Below are positions 18,960-52,166 of a stretch of 64,000 bases of DNA, in pieces. The number at the start of each line of letters is the position of its first letter. Positions within the stretch are counted from its first letter, which is position 1. The stretch comes from Dehalococcoidia bacterium (GTDB lineage: Bacteria; Chloroflexota; Dehalococcoidia; Plut-88900). The stretch is from assembly GCA_965207225.1 (NCBI GenBank), contig CBDBLV010000002.1:160001-224000 (forward strand), written 5' to 3'. A model generated the notes under the pieces. It searched no databases, was not told the DNA's origin, and worked only from the letters and a program-made list of their open reading frames with translations. A program made the position numbers and the translations under genes.

Positions 18960-19320
18960 AAGGGTGCGGGTTCCGCTCACCCTGAGCGATTAGTCGAAGA
19001 GCCTGCCCCTGCAAAGGCAGGGGGTCGAGCGGGTGGGTGGCCCACATCTCTCCAACCTATCACACCCGTCTTACCCCATTCCACACCCTTCCCTGTCATT
19101 CCGATGCCCCGCGATGAATCTAGGACTTGCCCGCTCACGCCCTTTATCTCCTTCTCCCTTCCTTTCCCCAGTACTGAACTAGAGGGCCACGGGGGTGCGC
19201 AGCACCCCCGTGGCCCTCTAGTTCTTCTCTCCCCCTCTCCCTTAAAGGCCCTAAGAGCCTGCCCCGAGTCCCTCGAGGGGGGGAGGGGGATCAAGGGGGT
19301 GAGGGTTCCCCTGTGGGGCC
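18960..19320. repeat. Cluster of palindromic REP/MITE-like repeats including a 23-bp perfect hairpin (19176-19224)
   Basis: GAGCCTGCCCCTGC-AAAG-GCAGGGG unit and CCCCTCTCCCTTAAAGGCCC unit; homologous to 20275-20405 and to the reverse complement of 40979-41128. Confidence 0.75.
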
Positions 19321-19348
19321 AAGGGGCATCCCCCCTGAAATTGCACAT

Positions 19349-19377
19349 TTGCCCTACCTGAACCCCCGTGCTATACT
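19349..19377 (+). promoter_or_regulatory. sigma70 promoter of ncRNA-like element copy C
   Basis: TTGCCC-N17-TATACT with extended TG; shares GCACATTTGCCCT with copy A. Confidence 0.6.
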
Positions 19378-19532
19378 ACTCCCCGGGCATCCGACCTCGT
19401 ACCTCGGCGCCCATCACAGGAAAGGAATAAAGAGTCTTATGAGACGCAACAGCCTGATCAGCTCTCGTCTTACCCGGGCCCTGCGCAACCGCCCGGCTAC
19501 CGACACGCGCCTCCTTCCTCCACCCTTTCCTA

Positions 19533-19992
19533 CCAGGCGATGGAAGGTCCATCGACCACACGCGGCACACCTGTCTCCCAGGGCATTCCCGCGTCTGCGC
19601 CACCTTAATGGCGTACTCACCCCCGGCCACAGGCCAGGGGGACGACCCGACACCCTCGGGTCCCCGGAGGCCACCGCGCCCCGGCTCGACTCCCCCGTCG
19701 CTTCCCTCGGAACTGCCCCCTTTCACGGCGACGGGAAGGAGTATACGCCCGACCCCCTCCGAAGGGTCGAGAGCGTCTGGGGTTCTTACCCCTTTCAGGA
19801 CTCCCCCCTCTTCCCTCTCGGAGACCCCTGTTCACCCAGAGACGGCAGAGAGTCCGCGCTCCCATCCCTCCGAATGGTAGAGCGTCTCCCGCATACGGAC
19901 AGGCCTGAGCTTCCCTCTAGCCCTGCCGACATGCGGGTCTGGCGCAGCTGGCCCCCGGCCCCTGCGCCCTGGTCATGGATCCTCCATCGCCT
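19533..19992 (+). ncRNA. Putative large structured ncRNA, copy C (with internal domain duplication)
   Basis: Closing stem AGGCGATGGAAGGTCCA / TGGATCCTCCATCGCCT, covarying internal hairpins, homology to 40344-40676 and 49288-49599. Confidence 0.55.
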
Positions 19993-19999
19993 ACACCCT

Positions 20000-20450
20000 C
20001 TTCCCGTCATTCCCGACCCCGATCGGGACCCTACGGGCGGGGGTTCCGCTCGCCCTGAGCGGAGTCGAAGGGTCTCAAGAGCGGAACGGAGTGGTATCCC
20101 CTCCTCGGAGCGGGGGACGGCCCACACACGACTGTCATGCCTCGCCAGTCATTCCCACCCCCTCCCCCTCCGTCATTCCTGCGGAGGGCAGAGCCTGCCC
20201 CTGCGAAGGCAGGGGAACCCATCCCTCCGGAACAATCACCTGCGATTTCGCAACTCACGCCATCCCCTCCCTTTCCACCAGTACCAAACTAGAGGGAGCA
20301 GTTGGCGCAGGCGCGCCAACTGCTCCCTCTGTTTTTCCTTCCCCCTCTCCCTTAAAGGCCCTAAGGGAGAGGGGGAACAAGGGGGAGAGGGTTCCCCTGT
20401 GGGGCTGAGGGTATCCCCTCTCCGTAGGGGCGACCGGCGGGTCGCCCTCC
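20000..20450. repeat. Mixed palindromic repeat array (GTCATTCC-type, GAGCCTGCCCCTG, long hairpin 20291-20330, GTAGGGGCGACC REP)
   Basis: Several short inverted repeats also found at 18960-19320 and 40979-41560. Confidence 0.7.
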
Positions 20451-20637
20451 CCCCTGCGACACGCGAAATCCCCAGAAAACCCTTTAGGCGTCGTTCAATC
20501 AAAACAGCTACGAGGTCAATCAACGTTCAATCAAAATCACAACCCCACAACCGGATAGAGACCCGGTGTGTCGCAAACCCACCCCACGGTACCTCGCCTT
20601 GAACACCCCCACCCTTCGTGCTAAGCTACCGACCCGT

Positions 20638-40151: not shown

Positions 40152-40343
40152 GGGTGTCTCCGGGAGCGGCGGTTACCGTAGAGTCGTCAAGGTCGGGTGC
40201 GGGGTCACAAATCGGGGGTCAAACAGGCGTCGCATCGGGATGGGCGTGAGTCTATCCGCGCACCTGGGGAATGTCAAATGACCGGGGGCCGGGCTATTCG
40301 GTTGTGGGGGTGGGGTTTTGATTGTTCTTTCGGGTTTTGGGTC

Positions 40344-40676
40344 GGCGATGGAAGGTCCGGGACTCAGGCGCAGGGGGGCGGGTATGCCTGCCCTGCGGAT
40401 ATTCGGCGGGTCTATGGTTAGGTGAACGGGTCAGGCAGTCCACCATAGAGGTTGAACCACCGAAAGAGCGGGCAAAGCCCGCCAGAGTCGTCGTGGTAGA
40501 CGCCAGAGGAATCCGACTTATCGACGGGATTCCCAACAAGGCCTGTTGCGGCCTTCAGACGTGCCGACAAGGTCAATGCCGGTGGCGTAGATGCGGTTCT
40601 TGCGGTATCCGCACAGACGGCATGCTCTTTCAAAGAGAGTGCACCGTAAGAGTATTGTGGACCTTCCATCGCCTGG
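40344..40676 (-). ncRNA. Putative large structured ncRNA, copy A
   Basis: Perfect 15-bp inverted repeat 40344-40358/40659-40673 enclosing many hairpins; homologous promoter and tail. Confidence 0.55.
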
Positions 40677-40901
40677 ATGGATGGGGAAGGGGCACGGGAC
40701 CCGTGGTGAGGAGACAACACTCTTAGCTTGAGCCTCGGGCCTGCGCGAGGGCCGTTGGGATGGGCCAGGGCGTTGAGTCCCCCGACCCCCGACTGCTCGG
40801 GGGCAGGCTTTCTCGGGGGCGATGCCTTGGGTCGGGTCTCGGGGCTTCCCTGGGTTTTTGGTTCCTCCTTGTGTTACTGAATTTCTGTTCGAACGCAGGA
40901 T

Positions 40902-40930
40902 ATGATAGTACGGTCGGACAGATGTGTCAA
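40902..40930 (-). promoter_or_regulatory. sigma70 promoter of element copy A
   Basis: TTGACA-N17-TATCAT, near-identical to 49114-49142. Confidence 0.7.
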
Positions 40931-40978
40931 GGGCAAATGTGCGGCTTTTTGGGGAGAATATCCCCCCGGTCCTCCCCA

Positions 40979-41560
40979 AGGGAACCCTCACCCCCTTGGT
41001 CCCTCTCTCCCCCGTATCGGAGTACGGGGCAGGCTCAGGGCCTATAAGGGAGAGGGGGAGAGGAGAACAGAGGCCCGCGTGGGTGCGACGCACCCACGCG
41101 GGCCTCTAGTTCAGTACTGGGGGAGGGATGGTTCGGTTTTGAAGGAGCGATCCAAGTCTTAGCGTGTATGGCGGACAGGGTACCCACGAGGGGCACCCCT
41201 ACAGGGAGGGATAAATATGAGTCCCACCCGCCCGCCCTGTTTTATTTGAATTATCAGAAATGCTGCCAAGCAGCATTTCTGATAATTCGTTACCAGGGGG
41301 GATGTCAGGAAGAAGTGAGAGTGGCAAGGATTGGGGTAGGGTTAAGGAGGGGCGCTTGAGATTCCTCGCGGAGCCTCGGGATGACAAGAGGGGAAGGTGG
41401 TTGTTGGTGATGGAAGGGCGAGACGGGTTGACAAGGTGTGGGGCACCCCCCGCTGCCCCGGGATCACCCTCACCCCAGCCCTCTCCCGTCGAGGGAGAGG
41501 GGGTAAGGACACCCCACCCAACCCCGCAGGATGGATTCCGGCTCGGGGGCCGGAATGACG
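40979..41560. repeat. Palindromic repeat cluster (composite hairpin unit, CCCCTAC REP, GATTCC..GAATGAC, CCCTCACCCC..CTCTCCC types)
   Basis: 40979-41128 resembles the reverse complement of 19166-19315; additional short inverted repeats. Confidence 0.7.
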
Positions 41561-48973: not shown

Positions 48974-49113
48974 GCCGGTCTCGCGGGTTGGGCATAGGTG
49001 GCTATGCGGGCCATCGTTTCCCCCTCACCCTGGCTCTCTCCCGGTCTATGCACCTCCCAGGGAAAGGGTTAAGGGGAGAGCTCACTCTCCCCTCATAAGC
49101 CGCACATTTGCTC

Positions 49114-49142
49114 TTGACACACCTGTCCGACAGTACTATCAT
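49114..49142 (+). promoter_or_regulatory. sigma70 promoter of element copy B
   Basis: TTGACA-N17-TATCAT. Confidence 0.7.
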
Positions 49143-49287
49143 ATCCTGCGGTCGAACAAATATCTGATAATAAAAGGAGGAACCAAAACCCCGGGGAGGC
49201 CCGAGCACGACCCAGAGGATGTAACCCCCGAGACGTCGGGGACGCCATCTCCTCACCCCACGGGTCCCGTGCTCCTTCCCCATCCAT

Positions 49288-49599
49288 CCAGGCGATGGAA
49301 GGTCCACAACATTAAACGGCACGCTCCTCACTTAGGAGCCCTGCCGAAAAACCTCGGGCCTTATGGCCCTTGGAAAAATCTCCCCCGTCGTTCCCCTCGG
49401 AGATTCCCATTAACCCAGCGACGGCAGCGAGAAAACACCTCCCCACCCCTCCGAGTGGGTCAGGAAAACTGAGAAACTGGTGGTAGAGACGCCCTCAGGC
49501 GAGGTCTCCTCGCTTGTCTGCCATGTGACACAGGAACACGGGGCTGAACCAGGCTGGCCTCCCGCCCCCTGAAAACCGAGTCCCGGACCTTCCATCGCC
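49288..49599 (+). ncRNA. Putative large structured ncRNA, copy B
   Basis: GGCGATGGAAGGTCC 49291-49305 pairs with GGACCTTCCATCGCC 49585-49599; internal CTCGGAG/CTCCGAG loop complementarity. Confidence 0.55.
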
Positions 49600-49789
49600 G
49601 ACCCCCTCCAAAACAGACAGAACGAAAATGAAAACCCCACAACTGAATAGGAACCCGGCGCATCACCAACCAGCCCAACCAGCGCAGCATATAGCGTTCC
49701 ACCCGGCTAAGGAGTACCATTACGCAGGCCCCAATTCTGCCAACCCCATGACAGGACCCAGACCCGTGAGCAGCCGGTAGGAGACACCC

Positions 49790-50956
49790 ATGGAGTACAA
49801 GATCATATCTGCGGACACCCACCTGGACACCGCTTGGCTTCCCGGCGACCTCTTCACCGATAACGCCCCCGCTCACCTCAGGGACAAGATGCCCTACGTG
49901 ACCGAGGGCAAGCACGGCGGCAAGGTCTGGGAGATCGGGGGTGAGTACATGTGCGGCGCGGGCGTCGGGGGCAACCTCACGCAGGACTTTGCCGCCTACG
50001 TCCCCGGCCAGTCCCATCACCTTGACCGCATGGCTGAGGTCGGCTTCTTCGAAGGCCAGGAGGACGGCATCTACCACCCCTCCGACCCCGAGCTCCGCAT
50101 CAAGGACCAGGACATAGACGGCGTGGACGCCGAGGTGGTCTACGGCATCCTTGGAATTGGCGGAGGCGGTTTTTCCGGGCCTGGTTTCAGGGACTTTGAG
50201 GTCACCACCGCCATCTACGACGTTTACAATAAATGGGTTTCCGACCTGTTTCGACCATACTCCAACCGGATAGCGGGCCTCGGGTGCCTCAGCAGCCACG
50301 ACCCCGATGTGGCCGCCCGGCAGCTCAGGGACTGCGCCGGCCTGGGCCTCCGCGGCGCCGAGATCAACGCCGGCAAGATGCCCGACCCCGCCTACCACAA
50401 GGCATGGGAGCCCCTGTGGCAGGCCGCGTCCGACACCCAGATGCCCATTTCCTTCCACACCCTGGGCTATCCCCACCGCACCCCCGCCCCCGAGGACCAG
50501 GACGAATATGGAAGGCTGGACATGGGTCTTCGCTTCATCATGTTTCAGCTATCCGGCATCGAGTTCCTGGTGAGCATGGTCCTCTCCGGCGCCTGCGTAC
50601 GCCACCCCGATTTCCAGTTCGTGCTCGGCGAGTGTGGCATCGGCTGGATCCCTTACGTAATTGAGAGGACTGACCTCAAGTACGATGACCGGCTGTTCCA
50701 TCTCGGCTTCGATATGAAGCCCAGCGATTACTGGCGCAGACAGGGATACTCGACCTTCCAGCAGGAGTACGTCTCCACCGATGAGGTCGAGCGGATCGGC
50801 GTTGACAACATCATGTGGGGCTCCGACTACCCTCACCCCGACGGCGTCTTCCCCGATTCCGCCAGGGCCATAGACGAGGGTCTTGGGCACCTGGATGCAG
50901 CCATTCGGCAGAAGCTGATTTGCGACAACGCCGCCAGGGTGTACAAGTTCAACTAG
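49790..50956 (+). CDS. Amidohydrolase_2 family protein
   Basis: 'ISADTH', 'DIDGVDAEV', 'MWGSDYPHPD'. Confidence 0.9.
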   Translation: MEYKIISADTHLDTAWLPGDLFTDNAPAHLRDKMPYVTEGKHGGKVWEIGGEYMCGAGVGGNLTQDFAAYVPGQSHHLDRMAEVGFFEGQEDGIYHPSDPELRIKDQDIDGVDAEVVYGILGIGGGGFSGPGFRDFEVTTAIYDVYNKWVSDLFRPYSNRIAGLGCLSSHDPDVAARQLRDCAGLGLRGAEINAGKMPDPAYHKAWEPLWQAASDTQMPISFHTLGYPHRTPAPEDQDEYGRLDMGLRFIMFQLSGIEFLVSMVLSGACVRHPDFQFVLGECGIGWIPYVIERTDLKYDDRLFHLGFDMKPSDYWRRQGYSTFQQEYVSTDEVERIGVDNIMWGSDYPHPDGVFPDSARAIDEGLGHLDAAIRQKLICDNAARVYKFN

Positions 50957-51011: not shown

Positions 51012-52166
51012 ATGAAATACAGCCTGATTTCCGCCGACACCCACATGGACCTCGTCTACATGCCCCCAGAGGTCTTCGTTGAGAATGCCCCATCGCACCT
51101 CAGGCACATGATGCCTCACGTAGAGGACACCGACGACGGGCCCTTCTGGATGCAGCAAGGAGACAGGGTAGTGCCTTCAGGGTTTGGTGGCCTGAACAGC
51201 GGAGAGTACAAGGAGGGCGAGGAACTGCACCTGGACCGCATGGCTGAAGTCGGCTTCTTCGACAGCATTGGGGAGGGTATTTTCCACCCCAGCAACCCCG
51301 ACCTCCGGGTCAAAGACCTCGATATTGACGGCGTCGACGCCGAGATGATGTATGGAATCCTGGAGATTGGCGCGGGCGGGCGCCTCGGCCCCGACGTTGA
51401 AGACGCAGGCGTCCTTGAAGCCACCTATGAGGTCTACAACCAGTGGGTCGCCGAATTCGTCGGCAAGAACCCCACCCGCATGAACGCCCTCGCCTGTCTC
51501 ACCCACCGGGACCCCCAGACCGCCGCCGACCAGCTCCGCAAAGCCGCCGAGCTGGGCCTCCGTGGCGCGGAGATACTCGTCCCCCCGATGATTAAGCCCG
51601 TCTACCACAAGGACTGGGATGTCTTGTGGCAGGCCGCCGCCGAGTGTCGGGTCCCCATCTCCTTCCACACCCTCGGCGGCCAGTTCTCCAGGCCCAAACC
51701 CGGTGAGGAGCAGGAGTACAAATACGTAGTCAGGGGGCTGGGCGAAGCTCTGTTTCAGATCGCCGGCTCCGAGTTCCTGATCAGCGTAATCCTATCCGGC
51801 GCATGCGAGAGGTTCCCGGACTTCAACTGGGTCCTCGGCGAATGTGGCATCGGTTGGATACCCTACATCGTCGAAAGGACCGACATAGAATACGACGACC
51901 GGCTGTTCCAGCTAGGGCTGGAGATGAAGCCCAGCGACTACTGGCGCCGCCAGGGCCATTCCACCTTCCAGGACGAATACGTCTCCATGGACGAGGTGGA
52001 GAGAATTGGCGTGGACTCCATCATGTGGGGCTCCGACTACCCCCACCCCGACGGCGTCTTCCCCGACTCCCGGGCCGTCATCAAGAAAAACCTCGGGCAC
52101 CTGCCGGATGAAATAGTCAGCCAGATCACCTGCGACAACGCCGCCAAGCTCTACCGCTTCAATTGA
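51012..52166 (+). CDS. Amidohydrolase_2 family protein (tandem paralogue)
   Basis: 'ISADTH', 'MWGSDYPHPD'; high similarity to the upstream gene. Confidence 0.9.
   Translation: MKYSLISADTHMDLVYMPPEVFVENAPSHLRHMMPHVEDTDDGPFWMQQGDRVVPSGFGGLNSGEYKEGEELHLDRMAEVGFFDSIGEGIFHPSNPDLRVKDLDIDGVDAEMMYGILEIGAGGRLGPDVEDAGVLEATYEVYNQWVAEFVGKNPTRMNALACLTHRDPQTAADQLRKAAELGLRGAEILVPPMIKPVYHKDWDVLWQAAAECRVPISFHTLGGQFSRPKPGEEQEYKYVVRGLGEALFQIAGSEFLISVILSGACERFPDFNWVLGECGIGWIPYIVERTDIEYDDRLFQLGLEMKPSDYWRRQGHSTFQDEYVSMDEVERIGVDSIMWGSDYPHPDGVFPDSRAVIKKNLGHLPDEIVSQITCDNAAKLYRFN

Follow-up and report, generated by a model that had tools for sequence, protein, structure and literature searches.

A family of mosaic insertion elements, probably docked on host promoters and carrying a predicted structured RNA, in a Dehalococcoidia genus

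We analysed a 64,000-nt stretch of a Dehalococcoidia bacterium genome (contig CBDBLV010000002.1, positions 160,001 to 224,000 of the forward strand; “the window” in the following), in which a first-pass annotation had singled out three intergenic regions, A, B and C. These are copies of one genus-restricted, protein-less, mosaic insertion-element family of about 0.6-1.3 kb. The element is a discrete insertion block; it lacks an open reading frame (ORF), is multicopy and is absent at orthologous sites of relatives. It is probably a promoter-docked mobile (or once mobile) element, and on balance we favour the fuller reading that it homes to promoters, moves non-autonomously and bears a structured RNA with a promoter of its own. 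A three-way alignment of A, B and C gave a common order of promoter, leader, 5′ arm of a closing helix (P1), core, 3′ arm and tail, and all motifs that the first-pass annotation had listed for the three copies were found where it had placed them. It had offered a structured RNA family and a mobile element as alternatives; mobile insertion, an own promoter in 40 of 48 copies and the lack of an Rfam match agree with this proposal, strong covariation was not found, and the two alternatives, each partly right, turn out to be one thing.

Insertion at orthologous sites

The window belongs to a 4.03-Mb genome of 92.3% completeness (G000), and eight genomes of the same genus (G001-G008) were used for comparison. 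Empty orthologous sites, which the first-pass annotation had suggested looking for, were present in relatives at four loci, i.e. upstream of an amidohydrolase gene, nusA, a tRNA-Pro gene and a radical-SAM gene. The clean comparison of a filled and an empty site is the region upstream of the amidohydrolase orthologue in G003 versus G006 and G002. G003 is empty and reads ...GCCTCCC/TTAGCA..., while G006 and G002, whose flanks share 94% identity with those of G003, contain an 837-bp block. Their sequence at the filled site is ...GCCTCCC/ATGATCTCGTTCAGATAG ... CCGAACGAGTACAT CCC/TTAGCA..., so that the insert is flanked on both sides by (T)CCC, 3-4 bp in length. The ends of the insert are imperfect inverted repeats (TGATCTCGTTCAGATAG compared with the reverse complement of the 3′ end, TGTACTCGTTCGGTAG; about 14 of 16 positions, with one indel), and their core, CGTTCRG / CYGAACG, recurs in the copies at the nusA locus. 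At the loci of A and C, the left junctions are not comparable with the relatives. A border search found a common 5′ border motif in 21 of 120 sequences, several of them false.

The same intergenic region upstream of the amidohydrolase gene has a B-type copy in G000 and G008 and a copy with a different core and the same tail in G007. Other orthologous loci also carry different cores in different genomes. The presence of different core types at one orthologous site suggests that parts are swapped from copy to copy, for which recombination among the dispersed copies is the presumed route.

Short-read contigs of four DNA sequencing runs were examined at B. Their depth was 10-50 times that of the flanks over positions 49076-49686 and was back at the flank level after the bin 49640-49686. 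In these four runs the contigs break at the repeat, none bridges it, no joint skips the whole element, and no empty B site was seen. The only joints at B skip the core between the two P1 arms, as other core types would give.

Position relative to host promoters and genes

At four loci, the element ends on its 3′ side 1-4 nt before the −35 hexamer belonging to a co-oriented host promoter, with the same junction geometry. The nusA promoter (TTGCAA-18-TATAAT) is present in all members of the genus and also in other genera. In the filled genomes G000, G008, G005 and G007, the element terminus ...GGGTGCAC GGCC is found just before TTGCAA, and in the empty genomes G006, G002, G003 and G001 homology resumes at the same ...CC/TTGCAA. 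At the tRNA-Pro locus, the matching upstream gene is separated from the matching promoter-tRNA region by 13 nt in G006 and G002, 36 nt in G004 and 66 nt in G003; the corresponding distance in G000 is about 1.7 kb. The corresponding region of G001 has 413 nt, tRNA included, and no element, so that five sister genomes in all are without it. Homology resumes 2 nt (G006, G002) or 7 nt (G003, G004) before TTGAAC. At the radical-SAM locus, the homology of five genomes to G000 ends 2 nt before TTGACA, with no element motif upstream, and three genomes have an element of other core types. Because these promoters are present without the element in relatives, the host promoters are older than the element.

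For a genome-wide view, promoter-like sites with at least 8 of 12 matches were scanned, and their offset was counted from the end of the tail. Where the 3′ segment of about 40 nt is present, a promoter-like site comes directly after it. Among the 45 copies of G000 with a tail, such a site was found at an offset of 41-43 nt in 11 copies and at 10-17 nt in three copies, A among them, whose 3′ segment is short; the remainder of the range 0-224 gave only four matches. The 53 sister-genome loci with a tail yielded 18 matches at offsets of 40-44, many of which are orthologous to G000 loci and are not independent.

The gene calls were made with a crude caller based on codon usage (3,037 ORFs, 83% coding). 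The downstream gene is co-oriented with the element in 43 of 47 copies, one further copy being situated at a contig end; for the upstream gene, the figure is 21 of 48. Divergent genes flank 24 copies, and convergent genes flank one. A Pfam scan covered 40 of the 43 downstream ORFs that are co-oriented and placed each of the 40 in a clear family; the families have no common theme. They include rpoB, nusA, the genes for the ribosomal proteins S2 (rpsB) and S15 (rpsO), LeuRS (leuS), Glu/Gln-RS, UvrA, deformylase (def) and Lgt, as well as FolD, RibF, RNase HII, KatG, five Amidohydro_2 proteins, two CoA-transferases and one IS481-type transposase. The earlier statement that the genes behind A, B and C are unrelated is correct: B is followed by an Amidohydro_2 gene, A by a radical-SAM gene and C by a tRNA-Pro(GGG) gene. 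The gene downstream of A had been named cofG; the radical-SAM assignment stands, and the gene is a putative cofG.

Copy number and distribution

A copy in G000 was counted where a P1 5′ arm was followed, at a distance of 150-700 nt, by a 3′ arm. This arm-pair search of the genome revealed 48 copies, of which A, B and C, previously described as three diverged copies, are only three. Clustering placed the 48 copies into 13 core sub-families, and the likeness within clusters (identity × coverage) ranges from 68% to 97%. The B type has 14 members in G000, with values of 92-94%.

A BLAST search with B gave matches in nine of 41 genomes, namely G000 and all eight genomes of the same genus, each of which contains dozens of copies. 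None of the three genomes from other genera of the family and none of the 29 from other families of the class was matched. A search of 185,579 species for the exact 19-mer of the P1 5′ arm gave 78 stretches; 70 of these are in records titled Dehalococcoidia metagenome-assembled genome, and the remaining eight are single matches in unrelated taxa, at about chance level. The absence outside the genus holds at the sensitivity of BLAST and the exact 19-mer. The 22 sequencing runs listed with the locus are mostly labelled sponge metagenome, and no RNA run is among the 22.

Modules of the element

The alignment of the 14 B-type copies with their flanks and a scan of all 48 copies gave the following picture of the modules. 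An own near-consensus sigma70 promoter is present in 40 of 48 copies (by a script rule; the one of copy E19 looks spurious). It exists in three sequence versions, each near-consensus in −35, spacing and −10, which are shuffled relative to the core types; the version of B is found in about 20 of 48 copies. In B, the promoter scan found one promoter-like site, versus 0.2 expected. The promoter is followed, 29-36 nt after the −10 hexamer, by a box resembling a Shine-Dalgarno (SD) motif, AAGGAGGAACC (AAGGAGGAACCAAAA in B), which has no start codon and was found in 40 of 48 copies. In B, there is no ATG, GTG or TTG at normal spacing after this box; the nearest ATG is about 40 nt further on, with TAA as the very next codon. 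A zone with variable inserts separates the SD-like box from P1.

The outer 10 bp of P1 show no variation among 122 distinct copies of nine genomes, and the inner 5 bp are either GGTCC/GGACC or, fully compensated, AGACG/CGTCT. P1 encloses a hairpin-rich, sub-family-specific core of 200-540 nt. The C/A-rich, G-poor tail, with the terminus CCCCACAAC(C/T)GAA(T/C)A, could be identified in 45 of 48 copies. A further segment of about 40 nt, terminating in a ...CCGAACGAGTACA-like sequence, is present in roughly half of all copies.

On the antisense strand, the leader after the SD-like box contains a GC hairpin with G-U pairs and a T-run, which resembles a terminator. A scan of the sense strands of A and B for intrinsic terminators found none, so that transcription from the element would enter the host promoter unless Rho stops it. 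A rho gene and an RNase J gene are present in the genome.

Two variants of the architecture were observed. An “Element X” (G000:C2:254340-255050, 30 kb beyond the window) has a C-type promoter and leader and a different closing helix (AGGAAGGTCCCCGGAC / GTCCGGGACCTTCCT), and the architecture thus exists with at least one more stem type. In G001, G002 and G006 (loci L017, L018, L031, L036 and L037), the tail is interrupted by one to three tandem GGAACATCCGCCTCAGGAGGA-like units of about 21 nt, placed before the last CTGAATA and the 3′ segment.

Evidence for a structured RNA

The region of B from P1 arm to P1 arm folds at −133.6 kcal/mol, with z = −6.4 versus 100 shuffles; the value for the opposite strand is z = −4.4. 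For a structure alignment, 38 B-like cores from G000 and seven sister genomes, among them G001, G002 and G005-G008, were used. The consensus has 71 pairs in 12 helices, and 99.1% of the cells are paired, versus 36-44% with slid partners. Double changes occur in six pairs, versus 2.4 in shuffles (reached in 1 of 500), and in 23 cells, versus 6.9 (0 of 500). In P1, there are 11 sense wobbles versus three antisense ones. Blocks of 20-35 nt, both paired and unpaired, are invariant in all 38 cores from eight species, and the neutral intergenic DNA of these loci could not be aligned from clade to clade, which argues for constraint on the core. Taken together, the fold and covariation data support a structured RNA, short of proof. 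It seems rather likely that the RNA is really made and under selection.

Two earlier proposals at the RNA level have to be revised. The first internal hairpin had been thought to covary across A, B and C, but the cores compared belong to different, non-alignable sub-families. The transcript had been placed at about 310-460 nt; the predicted start lies about 150-190 nt upstream of the closing helix, and an RNA of at least 0.5 kb is therefore predicted.

The whole window was searched against Rfam 15. With gathering scores, only three tRNAs were found. At E values of up to 1 there were 11 matches, none of them inside A, B or the P1-to-P1 region of C; weak matches to BjrC80 and microRNA families sit in the module with repetitive extragenic palindrome (REP)-like hairpins at 20287-20461. 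The first-pass annotation had seen no likeness to tmRNA, RNase P, 6S RNA, SRP RNA or group I/II introns, and the covariance-model search agrees, since none of these matched. OLE, GOLLD, ROOL, HEARO and the riboswitches likewise did not match the element.

Anatomy of copies A, B and C

The coordinates of the three copies are summarised in Table 1. The extent of B had been given as 49097-49657, which is too short on the 3′ side; about 40 nt more belong to the element, up to about 49690. Downstream of the end of B follow a weak −35-like ATAGCG at 49691, TACCAT at 49715, and the ATG of the amidohydrolase gene at 49790. The closing stem is as previously described, perfect in A and B and slightly imperfect in C. 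The tail of C ends 566 nt beyond P1 because other repeat modules are inserted between them.

Table 1. Positions of element modules and abutting host promoters in the window
Feature	Position	Strand	Remark
B upstream box GCACATTTGC	49102-49111	+	sequence reading
B own promoter TTGACA-17-TATCAT	49114-49142 (TTGACA 49114-49119, TATCAT 49137-49142)	+	11/12 matches
B SD-like box AAGGAGGAACCAAAA	49174-49188	+	31 nt after −10, no start codon behind
B antisense terminator-like site	49205-49190	-	faces element's own promoter
B P1 5′ arm CCAGGCGATGGAAGGTCCA	49288-49306	+	first 10 bp invariant in 122 distinct copies
B-type core, stacked hairpins	49307-49584	+	sub-family-specific; 14 copies in G000
B P1 3′ arm GGACCTTCCATCGCC	49585-49599	+	15 bp perfect with 5′ arm
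B C/A-rich, G-poor tail, terminating in CCCCACAACTGAATA	49600-49649	+	
B 3′ terminal segment, about 41 nt, closes element	49650-49690	+	weakly conserved; same geometry in sister-genome orthologue L014
A whole copy	40278-40945	-	tail end 40295, short 3′ segment to 40278
A own promoter TTGACA-17-TATCAT	40930-40902	-	identical to that of B, 11/12
A locus, antisense terminator-like site	40838-40854	+	faces element's own promoter
A P1 arms	40676-40658 and 40358-40344	-	15 bp perfect
Host promoter TTGACA-17-TAGACT of radical-SAM (cofG-like) gene	40249-40277	-	directly abutted by end of A
C promoter, leader, P1 and core	19341-19991	+	two related modules in tandem in the core
C own promoter TTGCCC-17-TATACT with TG	19349-19377	+	TG-extended −10, poor −35
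C P1 arms	19533-19551 and 19977-19991	+	one A-C mismatch, one G-U
C other repeat modules between P1 and tail	19992-20520	+	repeat families D8, D12, D19
Terminator-like hairpin inside C	20290-20331	+	
REP-like hairpins inside C	20331-20411	+	
C tail (ends 20557) and 3′ terminal segment	20521-20598	+	
Host promoter of tRNA-Pro, TTGAAC, 17 nt, TGCTAAGCT	20599-20627	+	abutted by end of C

Search for a mobilising partner

The first-pass annotation had suggested looking for a co-occurring reverse transcriptase (RT), nuclease or transposase. In G000, there was no linked RT gene, no TnpB or IS110 gene and no transposase with matching ends. For the TnpB-type domain PF07282, no match was found in this 92.3% complete genome, and control matches were obtained in eight of 14 genomes; for the IS110-type domain PF01548, there was likewise no match in G000, with control matches in six of 14 genomes. 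The RT domain PF00078 has six matches in four genes of G000, each at least 16 kb from all 48 copies. A retron or another RT-linked RNA was considered and rejected, because no RT gene adjoins any copy. A search of G000 with the 3′ end motif, allowing up to two mismatches, gave 86 matches, of which only the element copies looked right and the rest were in unrelated genes. A search of G000 with a loose 5′-end pattern gave 68 matches, mostly irrelevant.

Copy E01 has a neighbouring insertion sequence (IS) of the IS481 type at G000:C1:39130-40400, outside the window, with the ends TGTATAGACCGGGGA and the domains rve, HTH and LZ_Tnp_IS481. It sits in the loop of a REP-like hairpin. This IS was considered as a partner and rejected, its ends being different from those of the element.

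Neighbouring repeats and genes

In a second repeat family, termed “terminator cassette”, a long GC hairpin and its T-rich run precede a pair of REP-like hairpins (CTCTCCCCCTCTCCC...GGGAGAGGGGGA and GGGGGTGAGGGTTCCCC). In the window it occurs at 19178-19325, at 20280-20411, and upstream of A at about 40990-41100, i.e. it is found both upstream of elements and lodged within them. A possible remnant of an IS481-type end is situated just upstream of B, at 49036-49052. Downstream of B, there are two tandem amidohydrolase paralogues (50018-50840 and 51228-52050), which are 78% alike. More Amidohydro_2 paralogues are present elsewhere in the window, and, as noted above, five of the 40 scanned element-adjacent genes are of this family. 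A self-BLAST of G000 revealed many repeated segments of 1-28 kb, several IS families at 3-10 copies, and long duplicated blocks. In view of these many repeats, the reported contamination of 8.3% may partly reflect duplication.

Discussion

Proposed mechanism

We propose that the element would spread as DNA, with an enzyme supplied in trans, and would dock in an oriented manner at the upstream edge of −35 regions. Like those of IS3-like DDE enzymes, its ends would be short terminal inverted repeats of the TG...CA type, and 3-4 bp would be duplicated. Insertion would leave the host gene with two tandem promoters. The element promoter would fire toward the host promoter and would yield a non-coding RNA of at least 0.5 kb, in which the long-range helix P1 would close the multi-hairpin core, which differs by sub-family. 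The SD-like box near the 5′ end might be a binding site for 30S subunits that guards the RNA against RNase J, similar to STAB-SD, and the C-rich, G-poor, unstructured tail might load Rho; these particular STAB-SD and Rho steps are tentative. Most transcripts would stop near the host promoter, and the remainder would form a long leader on the host mRNA. The antisense hairpin with its T-run in the leader might stop transcription arriving from the opposite direction. In our reading, the RNA and its transcription would act mainly in cis, either to tune or insulate the host promoter or to serve the persistence of the element. The net effect on the host gene may be activation, occlusion or insulation, between which the sequence does not distinguish.

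A further-reaching version of this proposal is a long shot. It holds that placement is by promoter-reading machinery, i.e. a transposase or integrase acting on sigma70 region 4 or on RNA polymerase at the −35 hexamer, perhaps RNA-aided, and that the genus might have domesticated the result, with about 50 genes having a tandem promoter and an RNA module that set expression. If true, this would be a transposon-built layer of promoter control that includes rpoB, nusA, rpsB, leuS and uvrA.

Irrespective of that version, real docking would point to an enzyme that recognises promoters or promoter-bound polymerase, which would lend itself to the delivery of cargo beside promoters. The cargo is unusual, as it comprises a strong promoter and a predicted folded RNA of more than 0.5 kb before core housekeeping genes, kept at orthologous sites in several species. 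The family offers a testable case for transposon-driven rewiring of bacterial promoters, and it illustrates that large orphan structured RNAs from intergenic scans can belong to mobile DNA.

Points against and alternative explanations

Several observations weigh against a promoter-docked mobile element with a structured RNA. With regard to mobility, no autonomous partner was found in G000, and the ends of the 14 inspected IS-like repeat families differ from those of the element. The terminal repeats and the duplication come from one clean locus; at the nusA locus, which represents an older insertion, the left junction has no visible duplication, and many copies have other repeat modules on their 5′ side. 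At 19 loci, a sister-genome copy could be mapped to G000 by both of its flanks, and G000 is filled at all 19, so that most insertions are old and predate the species splits. With regard to docking, the sequence directly behind about half of the copies consists of other modules (such as terminator-like and REP-like hairpins) and not of a promoter. The hexamer abutted by B, ATAGCG, is a poor −35, and the host promoter at B is therefore not securely placed. With regard to the RNA, its transcription, ends and stability are predictions, and the SD-like box is missing in eight of 48 copies (C type and E02). Covariation is thin, since 37 of the 71 pairs never vary and six of the 71 have double changes. 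The alifold energy of the minus strand is lower than that of the plus strand (−99.7 versus −92.6), and the excess of sense wobbles is modest (26 cells versus 10 antisense cells in the 43 pairs predicted on both strands). Furthermore, the compensated P1 arms could also reflect a protein that binds both arms, and recent exchange between copies could also have produced the invariant blocks.

[quoted passage not shown] The same applies to the fact that both strands fold far better than shuffles, and bacterial MITEs often have sigma70-like promoters and stable folds, according to the available part of PMC10969869. We regard a passive repeat as unlikely, because all three promoter versions are near-consensus in −35, spacing and −10, the SD-like box is found at a fixed distance in 40 of 48 copies, the 20-35-nt blocks are invariant across eight species in surroundings of unalignable neutral DNA, and sense wobbles exceed antisense ones in those helices that both strands are predicted to form. 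A family of trans-acting RNA genes, e.g. encoding a ribonucleoprotein scaffold or an SD/anti-SD sponge, to which the location at promoters would be secondary, could account for the own promoter, the strong fold and the long invariant blocks, for the many copies kept at orthologous loci across species, and for the CCUCC loops together with the 5′ AAGGAGG box. This possibility seems improbable to us, as the 13 core sub-families have little in common beyond P1 and the flanks, one locus can have different cores in different species, the presence of the element at a site varies, and the exact −35 docking as well as the 43-to-4 orientation bias have no place in a purely trans model.

A cis-regulatory leader, similar to a riboswitch or an attenuator and placing about 50 operons under one signal, would likewise be expected upstream of co-oriented genes and would explain the large conserved fold and the terminator-like hairpin after some copies. 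At four loci, however, the host promoter is situated between the element and the gene and predates the element. In addition, the downstream genes lack a common theme, the cores differ by sub-family, the likeness of 88-97% between copies is typical of repeats, unlike that of regulon leaders, and no Rfam riboswitch matched, and we judge this explanation to be highly improbable. Decayed remnants of a protein gene were considered because C-type copies keep long stop-free frames. Copy C has a stop-free stretch of 474 codons (19178-20602, plus strand), with an RBS-like GGAAAGGA (RBS, ribosome-binding site) before an ATG at 19440, and 117-155 codons are open in E06, E32, E42, E14, E15, E34 and E39. 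However, the 13 stop-free stretches of A, B and C had only two matches in Pfam and PHROGs, both with E = 0.2 or worse. In sister C-type sub-families, it is a different frame that stays open over the same P1, so that the open frame of C looks like an effect of the C-rich strand and not like a gene; the sense strand is poor in the letters needed for stop codons. B-type copies contain frame-shifting indels, and open frames differ between copies of one sub-family, in line with the first-pass annotation, which had found no conserved reading frame and had named protein-gene decay among the findings that would overturn its proposal. With unshared frames and no Pfam or PHROGs family, the element is not a decayed gene, apart from a very small residual doubt. 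The promoter-docked mobile element with its own predicted RNA thus remains the reading that we prefer.

Comparison with known systems

The STAB-SD 5′ stabiliser was reportedly described by Agaisse and Lereclus in 1996 as a short motif in a Bacillus mRNA leader. Ribosomes at a strong SD motif block RNase J1, according to the available part of PMC5737220. The element is similar in having a strong SD-like box near the 5′ end of the predicted transcript with no start codon behind it, in a genome with an RNase J gene. In contrast to the Bacillus motif in an mRNA leader, its box would be part of a mobile non-coding unit, and stabilisation is a prediction.

The omega-RNAs of IS200/IS605 elements and the bridge RNAs of IS110 elements guide their enzymes. 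These RNAs, including HEARO, are also large, structured, multicopy RNAs of mobile elements that are transcribed toward the element end and the flank. The element differs in that it has no HEARO match in Rfam and that G000 has no PF07282 or PF01548 gene. RNA guidance seems unlikely, because the targets of the element share only a −35-like hexamer.

Group IIC introns insert after terminator stems. As with the element, their target is set by a transcription signal and not by a long sequence; an attC lineage and outward promoters are also described for them in the available part of PMC3001079. They are retroelements with a ribozyme and an RT, whereas the element has no Rfam intron match and the RT genes of G000 are at least 16 kb away. 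A route via an RNA copy seems unlikely for the element, because its new copies include the promoter.

Closer parallels are found among MITEs and mobile insertion cassettes, which are likewise non-autonomous and intergenic; for the element, short terminal inverted repeats and a small duplication were found at one locus. In common with MITEs, it has no internal transposase gene, is present in 48 copies and exhibits presence/absence differences at four loci. It differs in that the search of G000 found no cognate transposase with matching ends, in that its size is at or above the usual MITE range, and in its mosaic, modular structure and a target tied to a transcription signal. Some MITEs give rise to small RNAs, e.g. 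the QMITE-derived small RNAs of Coxiella (PMC10969869, available part).

Correia elements, which are MITEs of Neisseria, are protein-less and multicopy, lie mostly just upstream of genes, and have sigma70-like promoters able to drive neighbouring genes, and their inverted repeats form RNA stems once transcribed (PMC10969869, available part). The element resembles them in being protein-less, multicopy, gene-upstream and promoter-bearing. In contrast to Correia elements of about 100-200 bp, it has 0.6-1.3 kb, a complex multi-hairpin core in 13 versions, and an internal promoter directed through the full length of the element. It also docks 1-4 nt from the host −35 in one orientation, which is not reported for Correia elements in the available part of the same source.

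In a limited literature search, we found no description of an element that docks 1-4 nt from the −35 hexamers of many unrelated promoters in one orientation. Targets of bacterial transposable elements include attTn7, REP hairpins, terminators and attC. Compared with promoter-bearing MITEs, the new features of the element are its size, its large modular RNA and, above all, its fixed docking on −35 hexamers.

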